Shown: positions 16,429-48,157, counted from the first letter of the stretch. The stretch is 64,000 bases of DNA from an uncultured Clostridia bacterium (GCA_947168565.1 CAMVMM010000001.1:3939-67938), one strand, 5' to 3'. Made by a program: numbers and translations. The notes: generated by a model not told the origin, from the letters alone.

Positions 16429-17460
16429 TCAGTCAAGCTCTGCGAAGTACTTGATGGTGCGCACCATCTGGGTGGTGTAGCTGTTTTCGTTGTCGTACCA
16501 GGAAACGACCTGCACCTGGGTATCGCCGTTGGGAAGGGGCAGAACCATGGTCTGGGTTGCATCGAAAAGGGAGCCGTAGTACATGCCGATAACGTCGGAG
16601 GAAACGATCTCGTCGGTGTTGTAGCCGAAGGACTCGTTTGCCTGCTCCTTCATAGCCTCGTTGATCTGATCAACGGTAACGCTGCCCTTAACAACGGCAT
16701 TGAGCATTGTGGAGGAGCCGGTGGGAGTGGGAACGCGCTGAGCGGCGCCGATGAGCTTGCCGGAGAGCTCGGGGATAACAAGACCGATCGCCTTCGCGGC
16801 ACCGGTGGAGTTGGGAACGATGTTCAGTGCGCAGGCACGGCTGCGGCGGAGGTCGCCCTTCTTCTGGGGGCCGTCGAGGGGCATCTGATCGCCGGTGTAG
16901 GCATGAATGGTGCACATGATGCCGCTCTGGATGGGAGCCAGATCATTGAGCGCCTTCGCCATGGGAGCAAGGCAGTTGGTGGTGCAGCTCGCGGCGGAGA
17001 TAATGTTGTCCTCGGGCTTGAGGGTCTTGTGGTTTACATTGTAAACGATGGTGGGCAGATCGTTGCCTGCGGGAGCGGAGATAACGACCTTGCGGGCGCC
17101 GGCGTCGATATGCGCCTTTGCCTTTTCCTTGCTGGTGTAGAAGCCGGTGCACTCAAGCACAACGTCAACGCCGAGCTTGCCCCAGGGCAGATCGGCAGCG
17201 TTGGGCATCTTGTAGATAACGATCTTTTTGCCATCCACAACGATGTAGTTATCCTCGCCCTCGCCCTCGTGGTAATCCACGGCGTGGTTACCGAAAGCGG
17301 CCCAGTTGCCCTGAGTGGAGTCGTACTTGAGAAGATGAGCAAGCATTTTAGCGGAGGTGAGATCGTTGATAGCCACGACCTCATAGCCCTCCGAAACGAA
17401 CATCTGACGGAAAGCCAAACGGCCGATACGACCGAAACCATTGATTGCAACTCTAACCAT
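16429..17460 (-). CDS. gap: Glyceraldehyde-3-phosphate dehydrogenase
   Basis: Starts [14 protein letters not shown] at ATG 17460, 9 nt after GGAGG. The active site is [12 protein letters not shown]. Confidence 0.95.
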
Positions 17461-17580
17461 GTGTAATTTCCTCCAAATATTGTGTTTGGTTGTTTTGTGA
17501 ACAGGCACACCTGTCCCTTTAAATTATTATAGCGTTATTTTATGAAAAATCAACCGTTTATTTTGGATATTTTTCATGTT

Positions 17581-18513
17581 TTATTCAAGATTGAGCTCCT
17601 CCGCAACTATATAGAGCGGACGGTTCTTGAGCTCGTCGTACATTCTGTTCATATAGGCGCCCTGAATGCCGAGGAACACGAAGCCGATGCCCATCAATAG
17701 CGCAAGACCGAAGAACATCCAGAGCAGGCCCGATACCTTTACGGAGAATATGGCAAGGATGATGAAGATAAAGAACGCGAGGAGGCTCACAGCGGAAAGC
17801 CCTGCGCCGAAGTAGCCGCAAAGCGTGAGCGGACGGTCGGAAAAGCCGATAATGCCGTCCATTGCAAGCTTGAGCATCTTTTTAAGGGTGTACTTGGTTT
17901 TTCCGGCGTAGCGCTCGTTGCGCACGAATTCTATCGGCACCGATTCAAAGCCCATCCATGCGCTCATTCCGCGCAAAAAGCGGTTATGCTCGCGCATTTT
18001 AAGGAACACGTCCGCAACTCGGCGGTCGATCAATCGGAAGTCGCCCGTGTCGAGCGGGATCTCTGCGGCGCTCATCGCCTTCAGAACTCTGTAATAGCAG
18101 GCGGCGGTAAACTTTTTAAAGAAGGTCTCGCCCTGGCGCTTCACGCGCTTGCCGTAGGCTATATCGGCGCCGTTTTCCCACGCCTTGACCATATCCTCTA
18201 TCACCTCCGGCGGATCCTGAAGGTCAACGTCGATGATGATGAGCGCATCGCCCTGCGCCGCGTCCATGCCGCAGGTTACGGCGAGCTGATGCCCGAAGTT
18301 GCGGCTGAAGGAGCGCACCTTGACGTAGGGGTGCTCCTTGGCTATCCTGCGAAGGATCTTCATTGAACCGTCGCGGCTGCCATCGTTTACGTAGATTATT
18401 TCATAGTCGTAGCCGATGTTGCGCATTACCTCGTCCATGCGGCGAAAAGAGGTTTCAAGCACCTCCTCCTCGTTGTAGACGGGAACTATAAGCGAAAGCA
18501 TTGCGTTTTGCAT
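17581..18513 (-). CDS. Polyprenyl-phosphate glycosyltransferase, GT2 (GtrB/ArnC/DPM1-like)
   Basis: Has a GT-A N-domain (IVPVYNEE, YVNDGSRDGS, IIIDVDLQDPP) and two C-terminal TM helices. Confidence 0.88.
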   Translation of the reverse strand: MQNAMLSLIVPVYNEEEVLETSFRRMDEVMRNIGYDYEIIYVNDGSRDGSMKILRRIAKEHPYVKVRSFSRNFGHQLAVTCGMDAAQGDALIIIDVDLQDPPEVIEDMVKAWENGADIAYGKRVKRQGETFFKKFTAACYYRVLKAMSAAEIPLDTGDFRLIDRRVADVFLKMREHNRFLRGMSAWMGFESVPIEFVRNERYAGKTKYTLKKMLKLAMDGIIGFSDRPLTLCGYFGAGLSAVSLLAFFIFIILAIFSVKVSGLLWMFFGLALLMGIGFVFLGIQGAYMNRMYDELKNRPLYIVAEELNLE

Positions 18514-18555
18514 AAAAACTCCTTTTTTGTTTATGCGGTCTAGCCGCTTTTCTTA

Positions 18556-18584
18556 ATTATAGTCCATTTTTATTATTATTTCAA
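18556..18584 (-). promoter_or_regulatory. Sigma70-type promoter TTGAAA-17-TATAAT for the GT2 gene
   Basis: On the minus strand the -35 is at 18579-18584 and the -10 at 18556-18561. Confidence 0.6.
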
Positions 18585-18656
18585 GCATTCCTTTCATCGA
18601 CTTTTGAGATTATACTATCCTGCATCCGATTCGCCGCGAGGGGGCGGGCAGAGGCT

Positions 18657-18692
18657 GCGGAAAAGATGCCGTCCGAATCAAGGCTTCAGGTG
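18657..18692. repeat. Intergenic motif copy 2 (GCGGAAAAGATGCCGTCCGAATCAAGGCTTCAGGTG)
   Basis: 32 of 36 positions are identical to 12982-13017. It shares the blocks GTCCGAATCA and CAGGTGCGGG with 53452-53479. Confidence 0.7.
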
Positions 18693-18744
18693 CGGGACGG
18701 TATTACCGCTGGGTTTACGAAAAAACACACAAAAAGCGGGATAT

Positions 18745-18775
18745 ATAAAAAGACGGGCATAGTGCTGCCCGCCTC
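18745..18775 (-). terminator. Intrinsic terminator after rfbB
   Basis: The minus strand reads GGCGGGCA-GCACTA-TGCCCGTC followed by TTTTTATATAT. Confidence 0.6.
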
Positions 18776-18799
18776 TTCTGTGCTCGAAATCATGATGGC

Positions 18800-19819
18800 T
18801 CAGCGTTTACCGTACATTTTTTCATAGTAGTTACGGTAATCGCCGCTGACTATCTCCTCCCACCAATCGCGGTTGTCAAGATACCATTGAATGGTTTTCT
18901 TGATACCGTCCGCAAATTTGGTTTTGGGAAGCCAGCCAAGCTCATCGTGTATCTTGGTGGGGTCTATCGCATAGCGCATATCGTGCCCCTTGCGGTCGGT
19001 AACGTGGGTTATCAGGGATTCGGGCTTATCAAGCTCCTTGCAGATGAGCTTTACGATGTCTATATTGCGCATCTCGTTGTGACCGCCGACGTTGTATACC
19101 TCGCCCACCTTGCCCTTGTGGATGATGAGGTCGATCGCGCTGCAGTGATCCTCCACGTACAGCCAATCGCGGACGTTTATACCCTCGCCGTACACGGGCA
19201 GCGCCTTATCATTCAGGCAATTTGCGATCATGAGCGGGATAAGTTTCTCCGGAAAATGGTAGGGGCCGTAGTTGTTTGAGCAGCGGCTGATGGTGACCGG
19301 AAGCCCGTAGGTGCGGTAATATGCCATCACGAGCAGGTCGGCGGCAGCCTTGGACGCGCTGTAAGGGCTGGAGGTATGAAGCGGCGTTTCCTCGGTGAAG
19401 AAGAGCTCGGGCTTATCCAGCGGCAGATCTCCGTAGACCTCATCCGTTGAAACCTGATGGTAGCGCTTGATCCCGTATTTGCGGCAGGCGTCCATCAGGG
19501 TTGCCGTGCCGAAAATATTGGTTTGAAGAAATACGCCGGGATCCTCGATGCTTCTGTCCACGTGGCTTTCCGCAGCGAAATTCACGACTATATCCGGATG
19601 CTCCTCTTCAAACAGAGCGAACACGCCCTCCCTGTCGCAGATATCCAGCTTGACGAAGCGGAAATTCTTGTTGTCCATCACCGGCTTGAGGGTGCTGAGA
19701 TTGCCGGCATAGGTCAGCTTGTCAAGGCAAACGATCCTGTAATCGGGATGCTGCTTGAGCATATAGAATATGAAATTGCTTCCGATAAATCCGGCGCCGC
19801 CGGTAACAAAGATATTCAT
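18800..19819 (-). CDS. rfbB: dTDP-glucose 4,6-dehydratase
   Basis: 339 aa. Motifs are GGAGFIGSNF, the YSASKAA catalytic triad region and the typical RmlB C-terminus. Confidence 0.95.
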   Translation of the reverse strand: MNIFVTGGAGFIGSNFIFYMLKQHPDYRIVCLDKLTYAGNLSTLKPVMDNKNFRFVKLDICDREGVFALFEEEHPDIVVNFAAESHVDRSIEDPGVFLQTNIFGTATLMDACRKYGIKRYHQVSTDEVYGDLPLDKPELFFTEETPLHTSSPYSASKAAADLLVMAYYRTYGLPVTISRCSNNYGPYHFPEKLIPLMIANCLNDKALPVYGEGINVRDWLYVEDHCSAIDLIIHKGKVGEVYNVGGHNEMRNIDIVKLICKELDKPESLITHVTDRKGHDMRYAIDPTKIHDELGWLPKTKFADGIKKTIQWYLDNRDWWEEIVSGDYRNYYEKMYGKR

Positions 19820-19829
19820 GCGTTTCTCC

Positions 19830-20714
19830 TCACTTTCTCATTCTGCCGTCCGCAACGGCCAAAAGATGCTTGCCGTAATTGGATTTGCCGTAAACCTTAG
19901 CCGCGTTGATAAGCTGCTCCTTGGTTATCATTTTATACCTGTAGGCAACCTCCTCGGGCGCAGCAACTATTATACCCTGCATATTCTGGATCATCTGGAT
20001 AAAGTTTGACGCCTGCATCAGGCTGTCCATCGTGCCGGTATCGAGCCAGGAAAAGCCGCGTCCCATTATATCGCAATCCAGCAGCCCTTTTTCAAGATAC
20101 ATGCAGTTCAGCGTGGTGATCTCAAGCTCTCCCCTTGCGGAGGGCTTCACCCGGTGGGCAAGCCCGCTGACTCCGGCAGGATAGAAATACAGGCCCGTGA
20201 CGGCATAATTGCTCTTGGGCGCAGAGGGCTTCTCCTCGATAGAGAGCACCTTGTATTCCTTATCAAACTCCACAACGCCGAAGCGCTCGGGATCGTCCAC
20301 GTAAAAGCCGAACACGCTCGCGCGCCCGTTTTCCGCGCGGGTCACGGCATGCTTGAGCATATTGCCAAGACCGTTGCCGTAAAAAATATTGTCGCCAAGT
20401 ATCATGGCGCAGGGCTCGCCTGCGATGAACTCCTCGCCGATGATAAAGGCCTGTGCAAGCCCGTCCGGACTCGGCTGAACGGCGTAGCTGAGGCTTATGC
20501 CAAACTGGCTGCCGTCGCCAAGCAGCGCCTTGAAGCGCGGCGTGTCCTCGGGAGTGGAGATGATAAGAATATCCCTGATGTCCGCAAGCATGAGCGTTGT
20601 CAGCGGATAGTAGATCATCGGCTTGTCGTAAACAGGCAAAAGCTGCTTGCTTGTGACCATGGTGAGCGGATAGAGCCGGGTTCCGGCTCCGCCGGCAAGA
20701 ATAATACCTTTCAT
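19830..20714 (-). CDS. rfbA: Glucose-1-phosphate thymidylyltransferase
   Basis: 294 aa. Starts [18 protein letters not shown], with [17 protein letters not shown]. Confidence 0.95.
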
Positions 20715-20743
20715 GATATACCTCCAAATAAATAGTTAAACCA

Positions 20744-21871
20744 TCAGTCTTTTATACCGATCAAGCTGCAGAATGAGTTGAACTTATTATTAACAAACAG
20801 TTCGATGCGCGGATAAACCTTATCAAACGCTTTGAAAAACGGTTTTTCAATGAAGGCTTTTCTAAGATAATCAATAAGAGCGCAAACTATAAAAACAGCA
20901 ATCACACTTCCTATTGCATGAGGGATGGCATATGCGGTGGGATACACTTGAGCGTTTTTAAGCAGCGACCCCCAAAGCCAGCTTCTCATGTGGTCTCCGC
21001 TCGTGTGGATAAGAAAAACTCCGAACGTAAGCGAAGCCACGGTGTTGACGGCCTTGATGCTTTTAAGCTTGATATTCTTAAAGAACATGAAAACGAAAAC
21101 GCTCACAACAACCGGGAAGAATGAATTCGAGTCGTACGCAAAATAGTAAGGCGATACTCCGCGCTTCAAAGCATATACGGCAAGCGTTACCAGATAAAAC
21201 AGAATGACAGAACAAGCGGCAAGCGCGCCGGTGATCTTCAAGCTTGAAAACCATTTCTTAGGATAAAGCCTTATATACGCGGCGATAAGGTGAAGCACGA
21301 TAAACCAAACGGTATAGTTGAAGGTAACTCTTTTAAACGTGCCGAGAGCAACAAACAAAAACCCGCACAGAAGCAGCACTGTAAAATGAGCTTTTTCGGT
21401 TAAATTCCTAATGAAAGTATTCACGAAAGGAATGAACAGGTAATAAACGAGAAAGCCCGCGGTAAAGCCGGTGCTGACTTTTGAAACCGGTATCAAAGAA
21501 AGCAAAACGGATTTCAAGGAAAAAGACTGAACGCCGGCAGCCGCAAAAACAGCCATTATCGCCAGGCGATAAAACATAACCTCAAAAAGCAGCAGAAAAA
21601 ACTTCCTTGCGCTGATCTTCGCAGTGCACATAAAGTAAGCGCTCAGCAAAACAAAGCAGTTAATGATCGTTTTTCCAAAAAGACCAAACAGAAGGAAAAA
21701 GCCTCCCTTAAAGGAAACGGGGGAAGCGCCGATCAACTGAAGAACTCCGGAATTTACAACGTAATGATGAGCAATAATGAGTAAAGTTGCAAGAATGCGC
21801 AAAAGCTCCAAATTGGAGCTGCGTTCGCCTTTTTTAACGTTTAAGCCGTTTGCGGTCAAAGCTGTGCTCAT
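20744..21871 (-). CDS. Acyltransferase family 3 (AT3) integral membrane O-acyltransferase
   Basis: About 10 predicted TM segments and an N-terminal RILATLLIIAHH motif. The ATG at 21871 overlaps the aminotransferase stop (ATGA). Confidence 0.8.
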   Translation of the reverse strand: MSTALTANGLNVKKGERSSNLELLRILATLLIIAHHYVVNSGVLQLIGASPVSFKGGFFLLFGLFGKTIINCFVLLSAYFMCTAKISARKFFLLLFEVMFYRLAIMAVFAAAGVQSFSLKSVLLSLIPVSKVSTGFTAGFLVYYLFIPFVNTFIRNLTEKAHFTVLLLCGFLFVALGTFKRVTFNYTVWFIVLHLIAAYIRLYPKKWFSSLKITGALAACSVILFYLVTLAVYALKRGVSPYYFAYDSNSFFPVVVSVFVFMFFKNIKLKSIKAVNTVASLTFGVFLIHTSGDHMRSWLWGSLLKNAQVYPTAYAIPHAIGSVIAVFIVCALIDYLRKAFIEKPFFKAFDKVYPRIELFVNNKFNSFCSLIGIKD

Positions 21872-23010
21872 GCCGTAACCTCCCCGTTGATACCTGTTAT
21901 GACCGCGCATATCCTGTCCACATCGGATCTTGTCATATCGGCATAAAGCGGCAGCGTTAAAACACGGCTGCTTACGTCGAGCGCGACGGGCGTAAGACTT
22001 GTATCGTATTTTCCGTTGAATGCGGGGAATGCGCTCGTGAGAGGGTAAAAATACTTTCGCGCCATTATCCCGTGCTCTGCCAGTGCTTCAAGGACGGCAT
22101 CCCTGCCCGCGCCGAAAACCTTTTCATCGAAAACGACCGGATAGTAGGCGTAATTGCTTTTCACGTCGGGCTGAACGGGGTTGAGCCTTATGCCCTTTAT
22201 GCCGCCAAGCCTTTCGTTATAGTACTCCACTACCGCTTTTCGCTTTTCTATCTCCTCATCCACATGGCGCAGATTGCAGAGCCCCATCGCGGCGCAGAAT
22301 TCGTTCATTTTAGCGTTGGCGCCGCAATACTCCGCCTCATCCTTGGCCTTTATGCCGAAATTGCGCAGCGCAGGCAGGATCTCGCACAGCCGATCATCCG
22401 AAAAGCAGACGCAGCCGCCTTCGATGGTGTTGAAAACCTTGGTTGCATGAAAACTGAACATGGAGGCGTCGCCGAATGAGCCGACTCCGCGCCCCTTATA
22501 GGCTTCTCCGAAGGTGTGTGCGGCATCATAGATCACGGCAAGCCCGTGCTTTTTCGCAATGCGGTCTATCCGCTCAACGTCGCAGATGTTGCCGTAAACG
22601 TGCACGGGGATGATCGCGCTCGTGCGCTCGGTTATCAGCGATTCTATCCTGGATGCGTCGATGGTGTAGGTATTCGGGTCTATATCGCAAAATACGGGCG
22701 TAAGACCGTTTCTCACTATCGCGGTGGTGGTGGAGGCAAAGGTGAAGGGGGTCGTGATGACCTCGCCCGTCAGCCCCATAGCCTGAATCAGCAGCTCGAG
22801 CGCCATGTGGCCGTTCGTAAAAAGCTCCACGTGGGATACTCCGAGAAAGCTCTCAAGCTCACTTTGAAGCTGCCTGTGCTTAACGCCGGAATTTGTGAGC
22901 CAGCGGGTCTGCCAAAGCTCCCTTATCTCCTCGCAATACTCCTCGAAAGAGGGCATGGACGAACGGGTAACGTTGATGGGGTCAAACGCTTTTTTATTAA
23001 GATCTGACAT
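21868..23010 (-). CDS. DegT/DnrJ/EryC1/StrS family sugar aminotransferase (dTDP-4-keto-6-deoxyhexose aminotransferase-like)
   Basis: PLP-enzyme pattern (FASTTTAI, HVYG, ASMFSFHATKVFNTIEGG with the Lys). The start is probably the ATG at 23010. Confidence 0.88.
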   Translation of the reverse strand: MSDLNKKAFDPINVTRSSMPSFEEYCEEIRELWQTRWLTNSGVKHRQLQSELESFLGVSHVELFTNGHMALELLIQAMGLTGEVITTPFTFASTTTAIVRNGLTPVFCDIDPNTYTIDASRIESLITERTSAIIPVHVYGNICDVERIDRIAKKHGLAVIYDAAHTFGEAYKGRGVGSFGDASMFSFHATKVFNTIEGGCVCFSDDRLCEILPALRNFGIKAKDEAEYCGANAKMNEFCAAMGLCNLRHVDEEIEKRKAVVEYYNERLGGIKGIRLNPVQPDVKSNYAYYPVVFDEKVFGAGRDAVLEALAEHGIMARKYFYPLTSAFPAFNGKYDTSLTPVALDVSSRVLTLPLYADMTRSDVDRICAVITGINGEVTA

Positions 23011-23082
23011 GGTAACTCTCTTTCCGATGATGCCCTGCATCATCCCGAACTGAATGACCTATTCTTGAGATCAAACTGCGCG

Positions 23083-24546
23083 TCAACGCTTTTTGAATTC
23101 CTTTTTGAACGACTTTATCATCTCGATCATGTAGGTATAGCTCTCGAGCTTGAGCAGCTTGGAGGCCGAGATATAGAATGCCGCCCCCAGAATGATGCTG
23201 CAAACGATCCTGAGGATGCTTGGCATCGGGATGAAATGCAGGCAATATACAACACCCGCCATGACTGCCGCAAGCAGCAGGTTCGGTATTATATCTTTAA
23301 TCTGCTCGCCATAGGTATAGTTCAGCAGCTTCCTGTTTGGCCAGGAGTTGATGATCTGGAAAACAATGTTGGTCACAAGTCCGCTCAAGGCAAGCACTAA
23401 AACGCTGATGCGGATGGTGGCAAACAGTATTATCAAACCGACTGTTTTTTTAGCTATCTCCAGCTTGAGAAACAGATCGCTTCGGCCGGAAGCCTTGATC
23501 GCGCTGAGGTTTGAAGTGTGGATCGGTGTGAAAACGAGGGAAGCGCAGAAAATATACAGATACGGCACGGCAGGCAGCCATTTGTCCGTATAAAGCACGC
23601 GAATAACGTCCTCTCCGCAAACGGCCAAGCCAAAGAGCAGCGGAGCCAATATATAAGTGCTTGTTTTCATCGAGCGGCGCATCATCTGCTTCAAGCGCTC
23701 ACTTCTGTCCTGCACGCTTGAAAGCGCAGGAAACAGCACGCTGTTCAACGCCGAATCGACGTTGGCCACAACAAGCTTCGGCAATGCTCGTCCTCTGTTG
23801 TAAAACGCAAGATCGGAGGTCGTGTATATTTTTCCGATAAGAAGCTGCCTGAGCTCATTATACACGGTATTGATGAGCGAAGAAACAAGCATCTTCCAGC
23901 CGTATGAAAACAGCCCTTTCAGGCGGAAAAAGGAGAACATCAGCTTGGGGCGCCATTTGACGGTGAACCAAAGGAAAATCGTGTCGATAAAAGCATTTAC
24001 GAGATGCTGCGTAATAAGCGCCCAAACGCCGAAGCCGTAATAAGCCATAACGATGCTTACGATCGTGGAAACGATGGTTCCGGTCAGCGTGGCGAAAAAG
24101 AACTTTTTAAACAGCATGTGCTTGGAAACATACGCATGCTGAATGTTTTTAATGCCTGAGATCAGCAGCGTGATGCCCACAACGCGAACGACCGGCGTCA
24201 GCTCCGGCTGCTTATAAAACGAGGCGATGAGCGGTGCGGCAAAAAACAGAAGCGCATACAGCACCAGACAGAAGAATATATTGAAATAGAATACGGTTGA
24301 AAAATCAAGGTCGTCCGAATTCTTTTTTTGAATGAGAGCGCCGCCGAGACCGCTGTCTATAAACACGTTCAATATGGTGATAAACACGGTTACAAGCGCA
24401 ACGGAGCCGTAGACATTGGGCTCAAGCAGCCTTGCAAGGATGATGGTGAGCGCAAGCTGTACGAAGCGCACGGCCAGTCTCTCACTGAATCTCCAAAACA
24501 TATTGCGGACAATATTTGTGCCGCTGGTGGCATTTTTGTTTTTCAC
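23083..24546 (-). CDS. Wzx-like polysaccharide flippase (MOP superfamily)
   Basis: 487-aa multi-TM protein with a typical Wzx N-terminus (NMFWRFSERLAVRFVQLALTIILARLL). GTG start, 8 nt after GGAGAA. Confidence 0.85.
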   Translation of the reverse strand: MKNKNATSGTNIVRNMFWRFSERLAVRFVQLALTIILARLLEPNVYGSVALVTVFITILNVFIDSGLGGALIQKKNSDDLDFSTVFYFNIFFCLVLYALLFFAAPLIASFYKQPELTPVVRVVGITLLISGIKNIQHAYVSKHMLFKKFFFATLTGTIVSTIVSIVMAYYGFGVWALITQHLVNAFIDTIFLWFTVKWRPKLMFSFFRLKGLFSYGWKMLVSSLINTVYNELRQLLIGKIYTTSDLAFYNRGRALPKLVVANVDSALNSVLFPALSSVQDRSERLKQMMRRSMKTSTYILAPLLFGLAVCGEDVIRVLYTDKWLPAVPYLYIFCASLVFTPIHTSNLSAIKASGRSDLFLKLEIAKKTVGLIILFATIRISVLVLALSGLVTNIVFQIINSWPNRKLLNYTYGEQIKDIIPNLLLAAVMAGVVYCLHFIPMPSILRIVCSIILGAAFYISASKLLKLESYTYMIEMIKSFKKEFKKR

Positions 24547-25070
24547 TTTATATTTTCTCCGGGCAAAGTACTTTCTGTTGCAGGGGCCGATAATATAATG
24601 GAACCGATTATTACCGGCATTCGATCATCAAAAAGCAACGATCGACCAAATTATGCGAGCAGCCAAGCACAAAACGGAATCCTCCCGCAAAGGCTTGCTC
24701 AGCGTGGATGAGGGCATCCAATGTGGACAGCGCGCACCCTTTCACGGCCCGGAAAACCCCTTCCTCATAGAAACGACGCACGTATTCACACAATATAATT
24801 AAGTGCTATTATAACACAAACGCAATTTCGGCGCAACACTCTAACGCCGGACAAATCGGTTCTTTTAAAAAATATTTTTGATGCTTTTTCAGATACGGCA
24901 AATGCTTCAAGCATGATACTCGGCAATAAGCAATAGAGTAATTTGATTAAAACGCAACGATTTCGGAAGTGCCGCATTATTCATGCGCAAGAACCGCCTA
25001 GGTGCAATAAACACGCTTCGGCGGTTCCTTTAATAATTATAATAGAAAGTACGTTATGCGAATCAAGCTG

Positions 25071-27992
25071 TTAGTTGTTCAGCCTTCCCTCCATGAGCAT
25101 TTTAATGCTTTCGCAGAACACGGAAAGCACCCTTTCGGCGGTTGAGTCTTCGTATTTTGCATCGTTAAAGCTAAGCACCAGCCGCTGCTCGCCGTCGGGC
25201 TTGGTGAGTATCTGAACGTTCATCAGTCCGCAGGCGGCGCCCTTATTTACAAGGGGGATCGTTTCACACGGAACGCCCTTTATGCCGTCGAAGCTGCGCA
25301 TGGTGCCGAGCGTGCGGATGCGGAAGGGGTTGTTCGATTCGATCGTCGTTGTTTCGGAAACGTAGGGATACTTCTGGCAGGCAACGCCGAAGCGGATCTG
25401 CTCGTTCACCTCGCCGATAAGCTCCGAAACGCTTGAGATACGATCAAACGAAACCGCCACGGGGAACTCCTTGGTGATCGGGAAAACGGTGTCCTTATAC
25501 AGCACGTCGTCCCTGCCGCTGTATGCCCATGAAGCCATGATGTCGGTTTTTTTCTCCACGTCACGCAGCGTGCAGAGCGCGGCCGCCACGCAAAGCGCGT
25601 TCAGGCTGAGCCCGTGCGTATCAAGAAATTCGTTTAATTTGGCGGTAGACACGGGAAAATCATGGGAGATGGATTTTGAACGCATAAAGAGCGAATCGTG
25701 ATCCGGCGTAAAGCACCTGCACCACTGCTTGCCGCCGTAGCGCGAAAGCATCTTGTTTTTAGCGTCATAGTATTCATCGCCAAGCGTCCATTTATTCGTA
25801 TCCCTTGCGAAAAGATAGGCGTAATCCGGCGGCAGCTCCTCGCCGTTGTACGCAAGAGAGATGCTGCGGAACAGCGCGTGCATCGAAACGCCGTCCGTGA
25901 AAATATGATTAACGTCTAAAAAGACGCACACGTTCTCCTCCGTTTCAAAGAAACGAACCCGGTAAAGCGGCTTATTCATCAGGCTGCCGTAGGGAGCGAT
26001 AATATCCTGCTTAATCGTCTCAAGCTCCGATTCGCTCACCCTCTCAACGGAAAGCTCGGGCCTGATCGAGGGATCGTAATGCTGCACGAAGCCGAAATCC
26101 TCATCGATCCTGATCACCGAGCGGAAAACCGGATGATGCTCGATGACCCTCTCAAACGCATTGAGCAGCCTTTGAACGTCCACCTTATCCTTGGGCATGC
26201 GCCACATCACGAAAACGTTGCTGAACGTGGATTCGGGGTTCACAAGCTGATTATCCATAAGGAAAAGCTGCATCGGTATGAGCGGCTGATCGTGCTCAAG
26301 CGCCTTTTCATTCCTCACCTCAACGGATGCGGAAGCAAGCGCCTTTTTCTCGGCTACAGCCTGCGCTATGCGGCGCGGAGTTCTGAACTCGTAGAGCATA
26401 GGAACTGTGAGCAGCGGCTCGCCGGCAGACTCCACGACCTGCATGGAGCGGAGCGAATCGCCGCCGAGATCGTAAAAATCATCATTTACGCTGATTTTCT
26501 GCATTCCCAGCGCCTTTTCAAAGCTTGAAACCACAGCCCGCTCCAAATCATTTGCAGGCGCTTCGTATTCGCTCCTGAAGCTGTTGAAGTCCGGCTCCGG
26601 AAGCTGTTTGCGGTCGAGCTTGCCGTTTGGCAGCAGCGGCACGGAATCTATATGGATGAAGAATGAAGGAATCATGTAGTATGGCAAAAACTCCTTCATT
26701 TTTTCACGGGTCTGCTCCGGATCCACCTGTATATCCGCGGTGTAGTAAAGGCTCAAAAACGAACGCTCGGGCTTCACAAAGCCGCGTGCCGCCGCCCAGT
26801 CGACGCCGAGCACGCGCTTTGCAACGTGTTCCACCTCTCCAAGCTCCACGCGGTTGCCGTTTATCTTTATCATGTCGTTGTTTCTGCCAAGCACGTAAAG
26901 ATAGCCGTCCGGCATGACCCTGCCAAGATCGCCCGAATGAAAAACACCGTTTTTAAGCGCCTTTTCGGTTTGCTCGGGAAGGTTGAGATAGCCGCGGAAG
27001 AAGGGCGTTTCAAAGCAGATCTCACCCGTCTCCCCCTCCTTTACCTCGTTTTCGTTTTCATCAAGCAGCGCAGCTCCCACCAAGCTGTTCGGCCTTCCGA
27101 CGGGGCACTGGGGGTAGGCTTTATCCATCACGAACTCTGCGGCGGAGAAAAAGCTTTCGCTCATTGCATAAGCGTTTACAAGGCGCACGCCCTTGAGAAA
27201 CACGCCGTTTGCAGGCTCGCTTCCCGTGTAGACCATTTTTACGCAGGCGGGCACCTCCTCGTTCAGCGCACGGATCATGGAAGGCGAAAGGAAGGTGGCG
27301 TTTATCTGGTTCTCCTCCAAAAACCTGCGCAAAAGCGTGGGGTTTTTCACCGTTGCATAAGGAACTATAAACAGGTGATGCCCCGAGGTAAGCACGGAGA
27401 TCATATTTTTATAGAAGGCAACGAAATTGAGCGGCGCGATAAATGCAAACCGTATCACGGAATCCGGATCGGACTTTTTCTGGGATTTCAGCGCGATGTG
27501 CATCTTGAAATTGCCGTATTCGTGAAGCACTCCCTTGGGATTGCCCGTTGTGCCGGAGGTATACACGGCGAGCGCCGCATCGTGAATATCCGTTTTTTCA
27601 TAACCGGAAAGAGGCTCGGTGCGGGCGATCTCGTTCATGGCGTCCATATCTATCACAACCTTGCACCCGCAGTCCCTGCGGATATAGGCTATTCTTTCGG
27701 CGGCATAGGTATCCTCCACCACGGTAACAGCCGCGCCCGCCTTCCACACTCCGAGCATTGCTATGGGAACCAGATACCCCCTTGGGAGTATCACCATCAC
27801 GAAATCCTCCCTGCCAACGCCTTTTTTCTTGAGCCAAGCGTAGACCCTGCCCGAATACTCGTCCGCCTCACGGCGGGTTATGCCGCGCGGATGCAGCTCG
27901 TCCGATATAAAAAGCCTGTCCGGAGCATACTCCAAAACCTCGTTCCATTCGTCCAGAAAATAAGGAATATTGTTTAAAATGCCGATATCCAT
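25071..27992 (-). CDS. NRPS-like tridomain enzyme: adenylation - thiolation (carrier) - condensation
   Basis: A-domain cores are YTSGTTGNPKG, NAYAMSES, FHSGDLGR...GRNNDMIKINGNRVELGEVE and LPNGKLDRK. The T domain has DLGGDSLRS. The C domain has VNHIFTDG. The ATG at 27992 lies 7 nt after GAAGGAGAA. Confidence 0.9.
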   Translation of the reverse strand: MDIGILNNIPYFLDEWNEVLEYAPDRLFISDELHPRGITRREADEYSGRVYAWLKKKGVGREDFVMVILPRGYLVPIAMLGVWKAGAAVTVVEDTYAAERIAYIRRDCGCKVVIDMDAMNEIARTEPLSGYEKTDIHDAALAVYTSGTTGNPKGVLHEYGNFKMHIALKSQKKSDPDSVIRFAFIAPLNFVAFYKNMISVLTSGHHLFIVPYATVKNPTLLRRFLEENQINATFLSPSMIRALNEEVPACVKMVYTGSEPANGVFLKGVRLVNAYAMSESFFSAAEFVMDKAYPQCPVGRPNSLVGAALLDENENEVKEGETGEICFETPFFRGYLNLPEQTEKALKNGVFHSGDLGRVMPDGYLYVLGRNNDMIKINGNRVELGEVEHVAKRVLGVDWAAARGFVKPERSFLSLYYTADIQVDPEQTREKMKEFLPYYMIPSFFIHIDSVPLLPNGKLDRKQLPEPDFNSFRSEYEAPANDLERAVVSSFEKALGMQKISVNDDFYDLGGDSLRSMQVVESAGEPLLTVPMLYEFRTPRRIAQAVAEKKALASASVEVRNEKALEHDQPLIPMQLFLMDNQLVNPESTFSNVFVMWRMPKDKVDVQRLLNAFERVIEHHPVFRSVIRIDEDFGFVQHYDPSIRPELSVERVSESELETIKQDIIAPYGSLMNKPLYRVRFFETEENVCVFLDVNHIFTDGVSMHALFRSISLAYNGEELPPDYAYLFARDTNKWTLGDEYYDAKNKMLSRYGGKQWCRCFTPDHDSLFMRSKSISHDFPVSTAKLNEFLDTHGLSLNALCVAAALCTLRDVEKKTDIMASWAYSGRDDVLYKDTVFPITKEFPVAVSFDRISSVSELIGEVNEQIRFGVACQKYPYVSETTTIESNNPFRIRTLGTMRSFDGIKGVPCETIPLVNKGAACGLMNVQILTKPDGEQRLVLSFNDAKYEDSTAERVLSVFCESIKMLMEGRLNN

Positions 27993-28008
27993 TTCAGTAT
28001 TCTCCTTC

Positions 28009-29007
28009 TCAGCAAAGCCTGTTTTTACAGTCCCCCGTTTCAAAAATATCGTCTATATTGCTGATGGTGGTGTCGCAGAGCGCGTCTATGGATTCCTGTG
28101 TGAAGTATGCCATGTGCGGCGAGATTATCACGTTCGGAAAGCCGAGCAGCACCTGCATCACGTTGTCCTCAAGTATATCCTCGGTCATATCCACGGTGAA
28201 GGTGTTCGCTTCCTTTTCGTACACGTCGAGCGCGGCCGCCCTGATCTTTCGGCTTGCAAGCCCCCTGATAAGCGCGTCCGTATCTATAAGCCCTCCCCTT
28301 GCGGTGTTCACGATAACCACGCCGTCCTTCATGCGCGAAATGGACTCATCGTTTATCATGTGGTGGGTCTGCGGTGTAAGCGAACAGTGAAGCTGAATCA
28401 CGTCGCTCCTCTCATACAATTCGTCAAGGCTCACGTACTCCACTCCATCAAGCAGCTTGGGATGGGGCGTGTTCACAAGCACCTTCATGCCCATGGCCCT
28501 GCAAACGTTTATAACGCAGATACCGATGCGTCCTTCGCCCACGATGCCGACCGTTTTTCCGAAAAACTCGTAGCCGGACATATTGGAAACGGAGAAATTA
28601 TGCTCCCTTGAGTGGTTATACGCCTTGTGAACCTTCCTCACGGCGCAGAGCATGAGAGCAATGGAATACTCCGCTATGGAATAGGGGGAATAATCCGGCA
28701 CGTACACAACGGGGATCTTTCCGCGGGCGTATTCTATATCCACGTTGTTGTGACCCGCGCAGCGCATCGCTATAAGCTTTACGCCGGCCTCGATCAGCTC
28801 GTCTATAGCCTCCGCGCTCACGTCGTCGAACGGACAGGCGACCGCAACGTCGCACCCGTAGGCGAAAACCGCGGTATTCTTATCGAGCTTGTTTTTCATA
28901 AACCTGAAGCTGAACCGATCCTTGTAGCGCTCGTATTCAGCCTGATCGTACTCCATAAGGCTGTAAATGATGATTTTCAGCTTTTTTTGCGACTTTGCTT
29001 CAGACAT
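28009..29007 (-). CDS. D-isomer-specific 2-hydroxyacid dehydrogenase (D-lactate dehydrogenase-like)
   Basis: 332 aa. NAD fold GIVGEGRIG, with catalytic-type Arg (NTARGGLID), Glu (LDVYEKE) and His (ISPHMAYFT). Confidence 0.88.
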   Translation of the reverse strand: MSEAKSQKKLKIIIYSLMEYDQAEYERYKDRFSFRFMKNKLDKNTAVFAYGCDVAVACPFDDVSAEAIDELIEAGVKLIAMRCAGHNNVDIEYARGKIPVVYVPDYSPYSIAEYSIALMLCAVRKVHKAYNHSREHNFSVSNMSGYEFFGKTVGIVGEGRIGICVINVCRAMGMKVLVNTPHPKLLDGVEYVSLDELYERSDVIQLHCSLTPQTHHMINDESISRMKDGVVIVNTARGGLIDTDALIRGLASRKIRAAALDVYEKEANTFTVDMTEDILEDNVMQVLLGFPNVIISPHMAYFTQESIDALCDTTISNIDDIFETGDCKNRLC

Positions 29008-29040
29008 TTAAATGACCTCCAAGCATAAAATATCCATTTA

Positions 29041-29070
29041 ATTATACATGAAAATATATGTTAAAGTCAA
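29041..29070 (-). promoter_or_regulatory. Sigma70-type promoter TTGACT-18-TATAAT ahead of the dehydrogenase / A-T-C genes
   Basis: On the minus strand the -35 is at 29065-29070 and the -10 at 29041-29046. The GGAGG RBS and ATG at 29007 follow. Confidence 0.6.
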
Positions 29071-29175
29071 TATATGAAAACAAAAATAGCTGCTCGCCGC
29101 AGTTTCGGGCGGTGCGGCGCTAATTGCCCATTGGCGGAACGGCGGAGCTCCATGCCGAAATGACGGGGATAATTG

Positions 29176-29205
29176 AAAACAGCAAGTCTTGCAACTTGCT
29201 GTTTT
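29176..29205. terminator. Bidirectional terminator immediately 3' of tRNA-Ala
   Basis: AAAA-AACAGCAAGT-(6 nt)-ACTTGCTGTT-TTT, a perfect 10-bp stem. Confidence 0.7.
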
Positions 29206-29207
29206 CA

Positions 29208-29283
29208 TGGTGGAGCATAGCGGACTCGAACCGCTGACATCCACACTGCCAGTGTGGCACTCTACCAGCTGAGCTAATGCCCC
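29208..29283 (-). tRNA. tRNA-Ala (anticodon GGC), CCA encoded
   Basis: Hand-folded 76-nt cloverleaf. It has the G3:U70 identity pair, anticodon loop CTGGCAG and T loop TTCGAGT. Confidence 0.95.
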
Positions 29284-29295
29284 GTAACGGAATGT

Positions 29296-29323
29296 ATTAT
29301 ACAACAAATGATCGCGTTTGTAA
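29296..29323 (-). promoter_or_regulatory. Promoter TTACAA-16-TATAAT for tRNA-Ala
   Basis: The -10 at 29296-29301 lies 12 nt upstream of the tRNA 5' end. Confidence 0.5.
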
Positions 29324-29456
29324 AGGGCAATTTGATATATTGTGATGAAATGCGAATAATAGATTATTTGGGCGGAGCGGTGCTTACGAGCACGGCCGCG
29401 CACGCCGGAGGGCGAACGCAGCCGCGAATGATTCTTCAAAGCCATTTTTTCAAGGC

Positions 29457-30653
29457 TTATTTGATAAGATCGAGCTGAGCCTTAAGGTCTGCTATGATGT
29501 CCTCCGCATCCTCAAGACCAACGCTCAGGCGAAGCATGCTCACGCCGATGCCCGCCTCATCAAGCGCCTCGGGAGTGTAGGTGCTGTGGGTCATGGTGGC
29601 GGGATGCTCGATAAGGGTCTCCGCGTCGCCAAGGCTGACGGCGATGGTGCAGAGCTTGAGATTATTCACAAATTCTGCGCTCCTCTCGCGGTCGGTGTTC
29701 AGCTCAAAGGTCACGATGCCGCCGAAGCCGCCGTGCATCTGCTTCTTTGCAAGCTCATGCTGGGGGTGGCTCTCAAGGCCGGGATAGATAACGCGGGCAA
29801 CCGCGGGATGGGATTCAAGGAAGCGGGCGACCTTCATCGCGTTTTCACAATGCTTCTTAACGCGGATATCCAGCGTTTTAAGACCGCGGTCGATAAGGTA
29901 TGCCTCGAAGGGTCCGAGAACCGCGCCGGTCATATCCTTAAGGCCGAAAAGCGTGCATTCGGTGATGAAATCGGCGGGGCCCGCCGCCATGCCCGCGATA
30001 ACGTCGCCATGGCCGTTGAGATATTTGGTGGCGCTGTGGATCACAACGTCCGCACCGAGGTCGAGGGGCCTCTGAAGGTACGGAGTGGCAAAGGTGTTGT
30101 CCACTATGACCTTGGCTTCGGGGCAGGTTTCGTGCGCAAGCTTCGAAACGGCCTCGATATCAACGAGCTTGAGGTTGGGGTTGGTGGGCGTTTCAAAATA
30201 AAAGACCTTTGTGTTCGGCCTGATATTCGCCCGCACCTGCTCGATGTCTGAAAAGTCAACGAGGGTCACTTCAACGCCGTAGCGGGTCAGGCCGTGGGTG
30301 AAGAAGGAGAAGGTGCAGCCATAGAGCGCATCGTCCGCAAGCAGATGATCGCCGGCGTGAAGCGCGGTCCAAAGCACGGTGGTAACGGCGCCCATGCCGC
30401 TTGCCATTGCCATACCGGCTTCGGCATTTTCAAGCGCGGCGAGCTTTTGCCCTATCTTGGTGGTGTTCGGATTGCCGAGCCTCGTGTAGATGTAGCCGGA
30501 CTCCTCGAGCGCGAAGCGACTTGCGCCCTGAGCGGTGGTTTCAAATTCAAAGGTGGACGTTTGGAAGATCGGGGTAGCAAGGGGCGCGATGCCGGGTATT
30601 TCAAGCTTGCCGACGTGGATCTGCTTTGTTGCAAAGCCGCTGTTCTTTTCCAT
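29457..30653 (-). CDS. Cys/Met-metabolism PLP enzyme, methionine gamma-lyase / O-acetylhomoserine sulfhydrylase family
   Basis: 398 aa. Motifs are TKQIHVG, YTRLGNPNT and HSATKYLNGHGDVIAG (PLP Lys). Confidence 0.85.
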   Translation of the reverse strand: MEKNSGFATKQIHVGKLEIPGIAPLATPIFQTSTFEFETTAQGASRFALEESGYIYTRLGNPNTTKIGQKLAALENAEAGMAMASGMGAVTTVLWTALHAGDHLLADDALYGCTFSFFTHGLTRYGVEVTLVDFSDIEQVRANIRPNTKVFYFETPTNPNLKLVDIEAVSKLAHETCPEAKVIVDNTFATPYLQRPLDLGADVVIHSATKYLNGHGDVIAGMAAGPADFITECTLFGLKDMTGAVLGPFEAYLIDRGLKTLDIRVKKHCENAMKVARFLESHPAVARVIYPGLESHPQHELAKKQMHGGFGGIVTFELNTDRERSAEFVNNLKLCTIAVSLGDAETLIEHPATMTHSTYTPEALDEAGIGVSMLRLSVGLEDAEDIIADLKAQLDLIK

Positions 30654-30963
30654 TATGATTCCTCCGTACTTTTAATAGTAAAGTAGATTTCGCCTTTTTT
30701 GCCTCAAATGCGGCATTTTACCAAAGGCATTTCATATAGCTCTATTATACAGGATTTTTGCGTGAATTTCAGCTTTTTAATAAATATATTGCGGCGCTCA
30801 GGGGCAAGCGCGTTCATGATTGCGACAGGAGGCGGGCGAAAATGTCATAAAGAATTAACAAAAACCGGTGGAATATACGGCCGTGATGTGGTATAGTACG
30901 CTTTGAAGCCGACTGCATATATATATTGCGAAGCTTCAAGGCTAAAGAAAGGACTGTATTTTT

Positions 30964-31875
30964 ATGAAGAAACGAATCATCAGCATGGTGCTTGCGCTGC
31001 TTTTCTGCCTTGGCGCCGTGTCCACCGCATTTGCGATGGAGGAGGGCGATTGGCGCGTTGTGTTCGGCGCCGATCTAACGGCGGAGGAGCGGGGCGAGGT
31101 GCTCAAGCTTTTCGGCCTCAGCGACGCGATCGAGCAGGATCAGGCCAGGGTGCTCACCGTTTCCATTTCCGAGGAACGATTCTATCTCAACGGAAAGGTG
31201 CCTTCCGACAAGATCGGTCAGCGCTCCATCTCAAGCATCTTTATCCGCGCGCTCACTCCCGGCAGCGGCATCAAGGTCAGCACGCATAATATCAGCTACT
31301 GCACGGCCGAAATGTACGAAAGCGTGCTTGCGACCGTGGGCATCACGGATGCGGAGATAGTTGTCGCCGCGCCGCGCTCCGTCAGCGGCACCGCCGCCCT
31401 CACCGGCATCTATAAGGCATACGAAAGCATGACCGGCAGCCTTATCAGCGACTATATCAAGCAGGCGGGCTTTGAGGAGCTGCTCACCACCTGGGATCTT
31501 GCCGAGGTCATCGGCTCCGACGAGGCAACCGAGGTCATAATCGAGCTGAAAAAGATCCTTGACGTTACCCAGACCATGGGCGACGACGAGGTTAAGGAAT
31601 GCATCCGCACCATTGCGAACGACAACGACGTGCTTCTGACCGAGGAGCAGGTGGATCAGATACTCAGGCTCGGCAGAACCCTCGAGGGGCTGGACGTGGA
31701 GCAGATCCGCCAGCGTGCGCTGGGTCTTGCAAAGGCCGTTACCGGCTGGCAGAAATTCACCGGCGGCGTGAAGCGCGTGATCGAGGATATCGGAAACTTC
31801 CTTCGTGAGGTCGCAACCTTCCTGAGCAACGTGTTTGTGGACGTTTTCATGCCCAAGGCAAAGCCCGCAAACTGA
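30964..31875 (+). CDS. Secreted protein, DUF1002-like (hypothetical)
   Basis: Has a signal peptide (MKKRIISMVLALLFCLGAVSTAFA). The sequence resembles the Firmicute DUF1002 family as I remember it, and that family call is tentative. Confidence 0.55.
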   Translation: MKKRIISMVLALLFCLGAVSTAFAMEEGDWRVVFGADLTAEERGEVLKLFGLSDAIEQDQARVLTVSISEERFYLNGKVPSDKIGQRSISSIFIRALTPGSGIKVSTHNISYCTAEMYESVLATVGITDAEIVVAAPRSVSGTAALTGIYKAYESMTGSLISDYIKQAGFEELLTTWDLAEVIGSDEATEVIIELKKILDVTQTMGDDEVKECIRTIANDNDVLLTEEQVDQILRLGRTLEGLDVEQIRQRALGLAKAVTGWQKFTGGVKRVIEDIGNFLREVATFLSNVFVDVFMPKAKPAN

Positions 31876-46996: not shown

Positions 46997-48157
46997 TTAT
47001 CGAAGCGGCTCGGCAACGTAAACTATATCGCAGCTCTGGCGGCCGCCCGCGCAGGGGTGGCTGATGATGCCGCCGTGAAACGCCATCATCGCGGTCATAC
47101 CGCCGTCAAGATTATACGCTTCGGTGCAGCCGAGCTCATACATAAGCTTGGAAAGATCGCCCATCTTAAGGCCGTAGGAATAATCCGGCTCCTGCCTGCC
47201 GTCCACAACCACAAGGCAGTAATGCCCCGGCTCGTAGTAGCCTATCGCACAGCGGGGATTCCAGGTTTCAACGCTTGTGTTGAACGAGGTCATAGGCTGA
47301 CCGTTTTCAAGGAGCCTGGGGCCAAAGCTCCATGCGTGATAGGGGCGCTTTGCGTAAATGGACTGAAGATCGATCTGCCCCTTGAGATAGGTTTCCATGG
47401 TGCCGTCCTGATACAGCACGCAAACGTCCTGATCGGGGTGAAGCCTGTCCCTTAGCAGCTCGCCGTTTCTTATAGCAAGGCCGCTTGAGTGAAACAGGAA
47501 GTAGTCGCCGGAGGTGGCAACTATGCCGCCGTTTTGATTGCAAAGATCCTCCACCCTGTCCTTATTATTGGAGGATTGGGAGATCGCGCAGCGCAGGCTC
47601 GTGATGTCCTGTATGTAGATATCCGCCACGAAATAATGCACCGGCACATACTCCACCTTCACCGCATGCTCGCTTATCTCTATGCACACGTTGCTGCTGC
47701 GGTAAACGGTGTCGGTATATATTACCTCGCCGCTTGTGAATTTTTCGGCATATTTGCCCCTTAAAAGACCGTTTGTCTGCACGGGAGTGGGCTGAGCGGT
47801 GGGTGCGTCCGTCGGAGTGGCTGTGGGCGCGTCCGTAGGCAAATCCGAGGGTGCGGCGGATGCTTCTCCGCCGGGAGTGGCGGAGGGATCATCTGCCGGC
47901 GCTGTGGGCGCGGCGGGTGTCGCGCTCACCTGCTCCGTTTCGGAGGGCCGGAGGGATTCGGCGGGAGCGGAGGCAGGAGGCGTGGGCGCAAGGCCCAGCG
48001 TTGGAAGCGGCGTATTGTCCAAAAAGCTGATGCCGCTGGGCACGAGCTTTTTCGGCTTGGCATGATGGAACCATGCAAAGCCCAGGAGCAGCACCGCAAA
48101 GCACAGGATGTCCGCGGTTACAACGATAAGAATCTTTTTTGCGTTAAAATTTTTCAT
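46997..48157 (-). CDS. Membrane-anchored phosphodiester glycosidase family protein (DUF2233-like)
   Basis: It has an N-terminal TM helix, a Pro/Thr/Ala-rich linker, and a C-terminal domain ending AYNLDGGMTAMMAFHG, which is typical of the family as I recall it. Confidence 0.65.
   Translation of the reverse strand: MKNFNAKKILIVVTADILCFAVLLLGFAWFHHAKPKKLVPSGISFLDNTPLPTLGLAPTPPASAPAESLRPSETEQVSATPAAPTAPADDPSATPGGEASAAPSDLPTDAPTATPTDAPTAQPTPVQTNGLLRGKYAEKFTSGEVIYTDTVYRSSNVCIEISEHAVKVEYVPVHYFVADIYIQDITSLRCAISQSSNNKDRVEDLCNQNGGIVATSGDYFLFHSSGLAIRNGELLRDRLHPDQDVCVLYQDGTMETYLKGQIDLQSIYAKRPYHAWSFGPRLLENGQPMTSFNTSVETWNPRCAIGYYEPGHYCLVVVDGRQEPDYSYGLKMGDLSKLMYELGCTEAYNLDGGMTAMMAFHGGIISHPCAGGRQSCDIVYVAEPLR

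Follow-up and report, generated by a model that had tools for sequence, protein, structure and literature searches.

Does a protein built like a module of a nonribosomal peptide synthetase (NRPS) decorate a cell-surface sugar? This question is raised by a stretch of 64,000 nucleotides from an uncultured Clostridia bacterium (CAMVMM010000001.1:3939-67938), which we call the window throughout. On its minus strand, the genes of a D-2-hydroxyacid dehydrogenase (DH) and of a free-standing protein with adenylation, thiolation and condensation domains (A-T-C) are found beside a cassette for a dTDP-activated amino sugar, consisting of a Wzx flippase, a DegT-type aminotransferase, an AT3 membrane acyltransferase, RfbA and RfbB, and beside a polyprenyl-phosphate glycosyltransferase of family GT2. 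The initial annotation had proposed that the C domain acylates the sugar amine with a D-2-hydroxy acid. We favor a different reading, to which we assign a probability of roughly 55%: DH/A-T-C would be a module that acylates a small molecule, the sugar cassette would be a second, separate system in its neighborhood, and the GT2 gene would be transcribed on its own. We prefer this reading because A-T-C and the sugar genes do not co-occur elsewhere in either direction, because the other DH-linked pairs lie in unrelated contexts, and because promoter-like sites and a hairpin are found in the gap between the two.

The neighborhoods were studied at 90 loci of the A-T-C family, which were collected by exact-protein look-ups, a genome scan, and a scan of metagenomes for which the C domain alone served as seed. 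The homologue search returned more than 3,000 matches, in which generic NRPS adenylation-domain proteins are included. The genome scan with the full-length alignment selected generic A-domain motifs and yielded mostly unrelated NRPSs, only L004-L008 being family members. In tblastn searches with the window proteins, homologues of Wzx, DegT, AT3, RfbA, RfbB, and GT2 were found at none of the 90 loci, and thirteen further glycan-locus proteins used as probes were equally absent (0/90). The joint occurrence of DH, DegT, RfbA, RfbB, and Wzx, which the sugar-acylating proposal would lead one to look for, is consequently not seen across these loci. The nearest homologues with usable context, P0002, P0005, and P0007 (66%, 61%, and 58% identity, respectively), have no sugar genes around them, and both other DH-linked pairs (L001/L002 and L088) are placed in unrelated surroundings. 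In the opposite direction, none of six orthologous sugar cassettes contains an A-T-C gene. As a test of co-conservation, this outcome in both directions speaks against acylation of the sugar amine by the C domain. The initial annotation had named, as an observation that would count against it, homologues residing mainly in multimodular NRPS clusters without sugar genes; the lack of sugar genes is what we find, while multimodular architectures are confined to distant relatives.

The layout of the locus was reexamined along this line (Table 1). Profile searches agree with the eight minus-strand genes, their positions and their domains as first described, and the genes are indeed co-directional. 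They do not, however, appear to form one unit. Separate promoter-like sites, the hairpin in the gap, and the strong terminator behind rfbB argue, on the level of sequence signals, for three transcription units, i.e., DH/A-T-C, the wzx operon, and GT2. The promoter-like sites are consensus matches and do not amount to proof. We recovered the TTGACT-18-TATAAT site, the terminator following rfbB, the overlap in which DegT and AT3 share ATGA, and the GAAGGAG ribosome-binding site for A-T-C, which directly follows the stop codon of DH; between this codon and the A-T-C start codon, 16 nt were counted instead of the 14 nt reported earlier. Between A-T-C and Wzx, 524 bp contain both the hairpin and the wzx promoter-like site, an arrangement unfavorable to a sugar-decorating NRPS. 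The hairpin region folds with -24.4 kcal/mol (z = -2.05) and is followed by a short and poor U tract; it is possibly a weak terminator. The pattern TTGCGC-17-(TGn)TATAAT has a single match in the window, compared to 0.04 expected by chance. GC content and GC content at third codon positions (GC3) do not separate the transcription units, AT3 being the sole outlier across the locus. It is the counts and the signals that are observed here; the independence of the two systems is what we infer from them.

Table 1. Features of the locus, with positions counted from the first letter of the window. All bit scores refer to NCBI equivalog models.
Feature	Position	Strand	Remarks
tRNA-Ala(GGC)	29208..29283	-	upstream boundary of the DH/A-T-C unit
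tRNA-Ala terminator hairpin	29174-29207	-	perfect, 14 bp; upstream of the TTGACT-18-TATAAT site
Promoter-like site TTGACT-18-TATAAT	29041..29070	-	11/12 consensus matches; serves the DH/A-T-C unit; just downstream of the tRNA-Ala hairpin
D-isomer 2-hydroxyacid dehydrogenase (DH)	28009..29007	-	332 aa; PF02826 and PF00389
Single-module NRPS-like A-T-C protein	25071..27992	-	973 aa; PF00501 at 40-353, PF00550 at 503-563, PF00668 at 583-894
Hairpin GGAACCGCC...GGCGGUUC	24989..25028	-	9 bp, GC-rich, 40 nt past the A-T-C stop codon
Promoter-like site TTGCGC-17-TATAAT	24808..24836	-	extended -10 TG; for the wzx operon
Wzx-type MOP flippase	23083..24546	-	487 aa, GTG start; PF13440 at 1e-101
DegT/DesI-like dTDP-4-keto-6-deoxyhexose aminotransferase	21868..23043	-	PF01041 at 9e-104
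AT3 membrane acyltransferase	20744..21871	-	375 aa; PF01757; nine transmembrane-like segments; ATGA overlap with DegT
RfbA, glucose-1-phosphate thymidylyltransferase	19830..20714	-	TIGR01207, 455 bits, above cut-off 361
RfbB, dTDP-glucose 4,6-dehydratase	18800..19819	-	TIGR01181, 499 bits, above cut-off 365
Intrinsic terminator after rfbB	18745..18785	-	-24.9 kcal/mol, z = -3.36, then U run
Promoter-like site TTGAAA-17-TATAAT	18556..18584	-	for GT2; 11/12 matches
GT2 polyprenyl-phosphate glycosyltransferase, GtrB/ArnC/PgfS type	17581..18513	-	PF00535; three C-terminal transmembrane-like segments

A few features around the units deserve mention. A leader of about 260 nt (24547-24807) separates the promoter-like site of wzx from its GTG start and contains a terminator-like hairpin (24688-24674). 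This leader folds no better than shuffled sequence (z = +1.8) and shows no conservation in L175, where the only comparable upstream region is found; a Rfam search over 17000-31000 gave the tRNA as the sole match and none for the leader. Next to the tRNA gene, no convincing att-like direct repeats were found around DH/A-T-C. An open reading frame of 135 aa (29038-29445), which overlaps tRNA-Ala and its terminator, is almost certainly no gene.

Both sequence and predicted fold identify the A-T-C protein as one authentic NRPS module. PF00501 and PF00668 match with E = 1e-48 and E = 6e-26, and the translation contains the motifs YTSGTTGNPKG, GGDS (Ser513), and NHIFTDG (His696, Asp700, Gly701). Motif A3, Ser513, and His696/Asp700/Gly701 are invariant in 53 homologues, and the A10 lysine (specificity-code position 517) is kept in 120 of 120. 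In the HHxxxDG motif of the C domain, the first His is replaced by Asn in the window protein, while most homologues have His; the second, catalytic His696 is preserved. The AlphaFold (AF2) model has a mean pLDDT of 87.8, and in a Foldseek comparison, LgrA A-T-C constructs and the DhbF cross-module structure 5u89 rank best; the fold matches EntF and PheA as well. A sequence search of the C domain against solved structures retrieved classical C, E, and Cy domains of NRPSs (BacC, LgrA, TycA, TycB, TycC, GrsA, DhbF, and BmdB) as distant relatives (E approximately 1e-8), with no OaaC-like chain at E ≤ 0.01.

The substrate pocket was read from an alignment to a GrsA-PheA fragment, by which the published Phe code DAWTIAAICK is reproduced. 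The resulting specificity code is VAKFYGAFSK, where Val191 takes position 235 and Lys195 position 239, in agreement between MAFFT and phmmer. A manual register of motif A4 that placed Asn189 at position 235 was discarded, as both programs put Val191 there. Val occupies position 235 in 108 of 120 family members, and Asp is never found. Among A domains that activate keto acids, Asp235 is typically replaced by an aliphatic residue (PMC10949194). Since Val replaces Asp235 in the same manner here, the A-T-C substrate is predicted not to be an alpha-amino acid. Lys239 hints that the substrate is small or acidic; the crowded, lysine-bearing pocket and a dehydrogenase resembling D-lactate dehydrogenases (D-LDHs) would both suit D-lactate or an acidic analogue of small size. 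A Dlt-like role in D-alanylation was considered and rejected: Asp235 is absent, so that D-alanine is an unlikely substrate, and no Dlt partners were seen.

In its sequence, the dehydrogenase is most similar to fermentative D-LDHs and VanH, a family-level assignment in which no equivalog cut-off is reached, the matches to the VanH and D-LDH NCBIfam models staying below theirs. Its best solved structures are D-LDHs, headed by 5z21 (1e-85) and followed by 3wx0 and 4cuj. The catalytic set of Arg, Glu, and His and the NAD-binding domain are present, and the translation reveals the motifs GxGxxG (GEGRIG), NTARG, DVYEKE, and SPHMAY. DH and A-T-C are a translationally coupled pair. DH is found directly upstream of A-T-C, at 14-16 nt, in two other lineages as well. 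In L001/L002, a DH of 76% identity accompanies the closest A-T-C homologue (P0002), while in L088 a DH of 63% identity accompanies an A-T-C protein of 44% identity. Among the 90 loci, DH homologues are limited to these two closest DH-linked lineages. P0005 and P0007 are close homologues without an adjacent DH. As their pocket codes are nearly identical to that of the window protein, the activated acid may be a common metabolite.

From the motifs and the co-conservation, the following course of events can be proposed. DH would form a D-2-hydroxy acid by reduction of a 2-oxo acid; after adenylation by the A domain, the hydroxy acid would be loaded as a thioester onto Ser513 of the T domain. His696 of the C domain would catalyze the attack by a free amine or hydroxyl group of a soluble metabolite, such that an N- or O-(2-hydroxyacyl) conjugate is released. 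While domains, motifs and fold are read directly from the protein, the identities of acid and acceptor are deduced. The first half of this scheme was already part of the initial annotation and gains support, by way of inference, because the pair recurs in two lineages and Asp235 of the A domain is replaced by Val, with Ser513 and His696 invariant. Given that A-T-C relatives are paired with a MATE exporter, the family products are probably secreted small molecules. The cassette, in turn, would make dTDP-4-amino-4,6-dideoxyhexose, of either glucose or galactose configuration, for a lipid-linked surface glycan that is flipped by Wzx, and AT3 would add an acyl group to the glycan, like other AT3 enzymes.

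What the family is usually associated with becomes apparent from its neighborhoods. A MatE homologue is encoded at 36 of the 90 loci. De novo clustering of the neighbors was carried out for 37 loci with at least 33% A-T-C identity. It revealed a STAS protein of about 98 aa directly upstream of A-T-C (13/37), a carboxylesterase directly downstream (13/37), a MatE protein of 600 aa with a C-terminal, RsbW-like HATPase_c_2 domain (11/37), and a dCache-HAMP-SpoIIE phosphatase, i.e., a PP2C sensor (11/37). In L099 (4195-12948), these genes are arranged in the order phosphatase, MatE-kinase, STAS, A-T-C, esterase. Similar partner sets were observed in L093, L100, L101, and L115, and in L129, L122, and L149 from the human gut. 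The phosphatase, the RsbW-like MatE protein, and the STAS protein look like a partner-switching set, and the fusion of exporter and kinase beside an NRPS suggests phosphorylation control over export or synthesis. We know of no description of a partner-switching set with such a fusion beside an NRPS. Distant relatives on human-gut contigs are multimodular NRPSs of 2000-4000 aa, which are flanked by like STAS and MatE genes. On the basis of sequence and gene order, this places the A-T-C family among secondary-metabolite NRPS systems with an exporter as the usual partner. None of the recurrent partners (STAS, MatE-kinase, phosphatase, esterase) is encoded in the window.

Two further observations concern the family as such. 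A subfamily of about 995 aa ends in the basic amphipathic tail TIGELxxxLxxKxxFFxxVKSIFRRKR (alignment columns 1001-1035), which is present in P0024, P0027, P0033, P0058, P0096, P0113, and P0116, and is missing from the window protein; the tail may be a membrane anchor. Furthermore, family-like A-T-C genes occur in rumen metagenome-assembled genomes (MAGs) labelled Methanobrevibacter, Spirochaetia, and Riflebacteria (L023, L008, and L007, respectively). This distribution suggests either horizontal spread within the rumen community or metagenome binning errors.

The sugar genes have a family history of their own. RfbA and RfbB pass the NCBI equivalog cut-offs, while DegT, Wzx, and GT2, like DH, are assigned at family level only. 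DegT scores 316 bits with TIGR04427 (DesI; cut-off 650) and 186 bits with WecE (cut-off 375), Wzx 283 bits with NF058658, the 'O-glycosylation flippase' (cut-off 720), and GT2 253 bits with PgfS (cut-off 500) and 150 bits with ArnC (cut-off 529). A search seeded with AT3 of the window yielded six distinct loci, L169, L171, L172, L173, L175, and L176, which show that Wzx-DegT-AT3(-RfbA-RfbB) forms a cassette conserved among MAGs of Clostridia and Synergistaceae. Identities to the window range from 52-55% for Wzx (L171, L172, L175, and L176), 56-68% for DegT (all six loci), and 46-51% for AT3 to 55-81% for RfbA and 71-87% for RfbB. AT3 directly follows DegT in all six, and a GT2 orthologue is found in none of them. 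The AT3 gene of the window has a GC3 of 0.50, compared to 0.64-0.73 in the neighboring genes; the gene may be a recent substitute within the cassette.

It is mainly in these cassettes that observations at odds with two independent systems are found. All six carry ATP-grasp genes, one to four per gene string, of the types ATP-grasp_4/LAL_C2, Dala_Dala_lig_C, and the 'sugar-transfer-associated' ATPgrasp_ST; they are often joined by an amino-acid permease (three of six loci) or a GNAT gene. Because every orthologous locus encodes such carboxylate ligases and the window none, an acyl ligase seems, as far as gene content tells, to be a normal part of the cassette family. In the whole window, tblastn with examples from related loci detected no GNAT, LbH, formyltransferase, ATP-grasp, or CapK-like gene, which bears out the earlier statement that no soluble sugar N-acyltransferase is encoded here. 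This leaves DH/A-T-C as the sole acyl-activating system beside the cassette, and on the same strand. L175 (5665-7863) encodes, directly upstream of DegT, a fusion of 732 aa that combines a member of the 2-dehydropantoate-2-reductase family (TIGR00745, 153 bits, cut-off 141) with a PaaK/CapK-like adenylate-forming domain; from these domains, it looks like an enzyme that makes and activates a hydroxy acid and is built into a sugar locus, in line with the chemistry envisaged in the initial annotation. The window protein and P0002 compare with 0.72 in the A domain and 0.61 in the C domain, whereas the values for P0002 and P0003 are 0.67 and 0.70; the greater divergence of the C domain in the window protein is a weak hint that fits a change of acceptor. 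Read-through from A-T-C into wzx is possible, the hairpin lacking a good U tract.

These observations are taken up by the explanation that ranks next. It holds that DH/A-T-C was recruited to the glycan locus, fills the slot of the acyl ligase, and N-acylates a dTDP- or lipid-linked 4-amino-4,6-dideoxyhexose, which is subsequently transferred and flipped by Wzx. The pair immediately adjoins wzx and is co-directional with it, although the window was chosen for just this adjacency, which therefore carries little weight. Also in its favor are the carboxylate-amine ligases missing from the window and present in every orthologous cassette, the L175 fusion as a demonstration that reductase and acid activation can be combined within the cassette family, an A domain without Asp235, and a C domain on a longer branch than the A domain. 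C domains that accept free amines exist, e.g., OaaC (PMC13310621). Against these stand the sugar genes absent from every family locus, the unrelated contexts of the other DH-linked pairs, and the locus itself, where DH/A-T-C has its own promoter-like site and the gap holds the hairpin and a second promoter-like site. Moreover, an N-acyl cap is not obligatory, since other surface glycans are known to contain sugars with a free amine. On balance, we regard recruitment as unlikely, albeit deserving attention before the alternatives that follow. That the pair specifically displaced the ATP-grasp ligases, with the C domain placing a D-2-hydroxyacyl amide on the dTDP- or lipid-linked amino sugar, is in our view a little more doubtful again.

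Much less probable is that A-T-C serves in trans as the loading module of an NRPS or carrier protein encoded elsewhere, its C domain joining the 2-hydroxyacyl group to an aminoacyl acceptor that is bound to a carrier. Canonical C domains do take carrier-bound acceptors, the distant relatives are parts of multimodular NRPSs, and at least two consecutive A-T-C-like genes are found at some loci (L007, L109, L119-L168). However, members of the closest clade mostly occur as a lone A-T-C protein, and the window has no other NRPS, carrier-protein, thioesterase, or reductase (R) domain gene. The least probable explanation, an acylation of another envelope acceptor (a lipid, a teichoic-acid-like polymer, or a peptidoglycan precursor) in analogy to Dlt and unrelated to the cassette, can appeal to weak matches to the DltA models (133 and 120 bits), to the tail FFxxVKSIFRRKR, which could bind membranes in many homologues of 995 aa, and to the MOP-superfamily (MatE) transporter as the commonest partner, but these scores are far below the cut-offs (476 and 560), the window protein lacks the basic tail, partners resembling DltB, DltD, or MBOAT proteins were not seen, and those that were seen (esterase, STAS, PP2C) give no pointer to the envelope.

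The reading of two neighboring systems is set into a window that otherwise contains housekeeping genes as flanks, among them ffh, trmD, gap, metC, plsX, rnc, smc, ftsY, and ackA. In a synteny analysis based on glyceraldehyde-3-phosphate dehydrogenase, a relative of 89% identity had a completely different neighborhood. Elsewhere on the minus strand, a second glycosylation pair comprises a fusion of GT2 with a GtrA/DPMS transmembrane domain (48179-49252) and a NAGPA-type phosphodiester glycosidase (46997-48157). A secreted repeat protein of 696 aa (50682-52772) has no Pfam match and a dockerin-like C-terminus, and an S8 protease of 1238 aa (58396-62112) carries Fn3, Big_2, and dockerin domains. 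These dockerin-bearing proteins suggest that the organism builds a cellulosome and belongs to the Ruminococcus-like Clostridia.

Beyond this locus, our findings bear on two groups of genes. Firmicutes of rumen and gut abound in full-length A-T-C relatives, whose annotation does not go beyond "AMP-binding protein"; they belong to a very large family, no member of which appears to have a known product. Leads to such a product are the activation of a non-amino acid (Val235), a dedicated dehydrogenase in some members, and usually a signal-regulated MATE exporter. Wzx-DegT-AT3-RfbAB cassettes with ATP-grasp ligases, on the other hand, indicate that gut anaerobes may have a class of glycans with acylated amino sugars, of which we found no description; the combination of ATP-grasp and permease genes suggests that these glycans are aminoacylated. 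Sugar decoration by A-T-C may occur, albeit with a low probability, and comparative genomics lends it no support. If the two systems are coupled here, the locus would be the first example of a C domain that decorates a glycan, i.e., of thiotemplate chemistry on a polysaccharide. If they are not, it calls for caution, as a position side by side within a variable region says little about a function in common.

Finally, the locus can be compared with systems of known function. In the pathways to dTDP-4-amino-4,6-dideoxyhexoses, RmlA and RmlB act together with WecE, VioA, or DesI, and the N-acyl cap is added by WecD or VioB. The window shares with them RfbA and RfbB above the equivalog cut-offs, a DegT-family aminotransferase, and a Wzx flippase. 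It differs from the pathways capped by WecD or VioB in having no GNAT or LbH N-acetyltransferase; instead, AT3 overlaps DegT, and the orthologous cassettes have ATP-grasp ligases. For the proposed decoration of the sugar, the perosamine of Vibrio cholerae O1, with its N-acylation dependent on a carrier protein or an AMP ligase, and the Dlt system, which decorates a surface polymer by D-alanylation, provide parallels, as both apply adenylation and carrier chemistry of the NRPS type to a surface polymer. However, neither uses a C domain, and Dlt relies on the MBOAT protein DltB and on DltD, partners of which no homologues are present here. In the literature, we found no description of an A-T-C or ATP-grasp enzyme that acylates a 4-amino-4,6-dideoxy sugar.

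For the pair itself, depsipeptide synthetases offer a second comparison. Those of cereulide and valinomycin have A domains that activate keto or hydroxy acids, and fungal ones are fed by D-2-hydroxyacid dehydrogenases. An aliphatic residue (Val) in place of Asp235 and a dedicated 2-oxoacid reductase alongside are common to them and to DH/A-T-C. The latter differs in being a single module that ends in C, with no ketoreductase in cis, no multimodular line, and no thioesterase or terminal cyclizing domain.

A third comparison leads to C domains that act on small molecules. In the biosynthesis of vibriobactin by VibE, VibB, and VibH, VibH is a C domain with a free amine as acceptor. A fatty-acid-amide pathway of gut Clostridia employs stand-alone C, T, and A proteins together with a phosphopantetheinyl transferase (PPTase), an SCP2-like protein, and a hydrolase (PMC10871352), and its C domain OaaC accepts free amines (PMC13310621). 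In both systems, as presumably here, an adenylating enzyme places a non-amino-acid carboxylate on a carrier, from which a C domain passes it to a small, carrier-free nucleophile; the fatty-acid-amide pathway additionally shares the phylogenetic setting in gut Clostridia. The window protein departs from both by the fusion of A, T, and C in one polypeptide and by a probable 2-hydroxy acid that is delivered by a dedicated dehydrogenase. PPTase, SCP2-like, and hydrolase partners are not found nearby, and the family has another partner set. Membership in the fatty-acid-amide pathway was rejected for its fused architecture, its other partners, and the missing OaaC-like match among solved structures. 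By analogy, the DH/A-T-C pair would be mechanistically closest to the C domains that accept free amines, and it also resembles the keto- and hydroxy-acid modules of the depsipeptide synthetases. Measured against these systems, DH/A-T-C follows an enzymatic logic that is known, in the form of an orphan variant with fused domains that lies beside a conserved sugar cassette.

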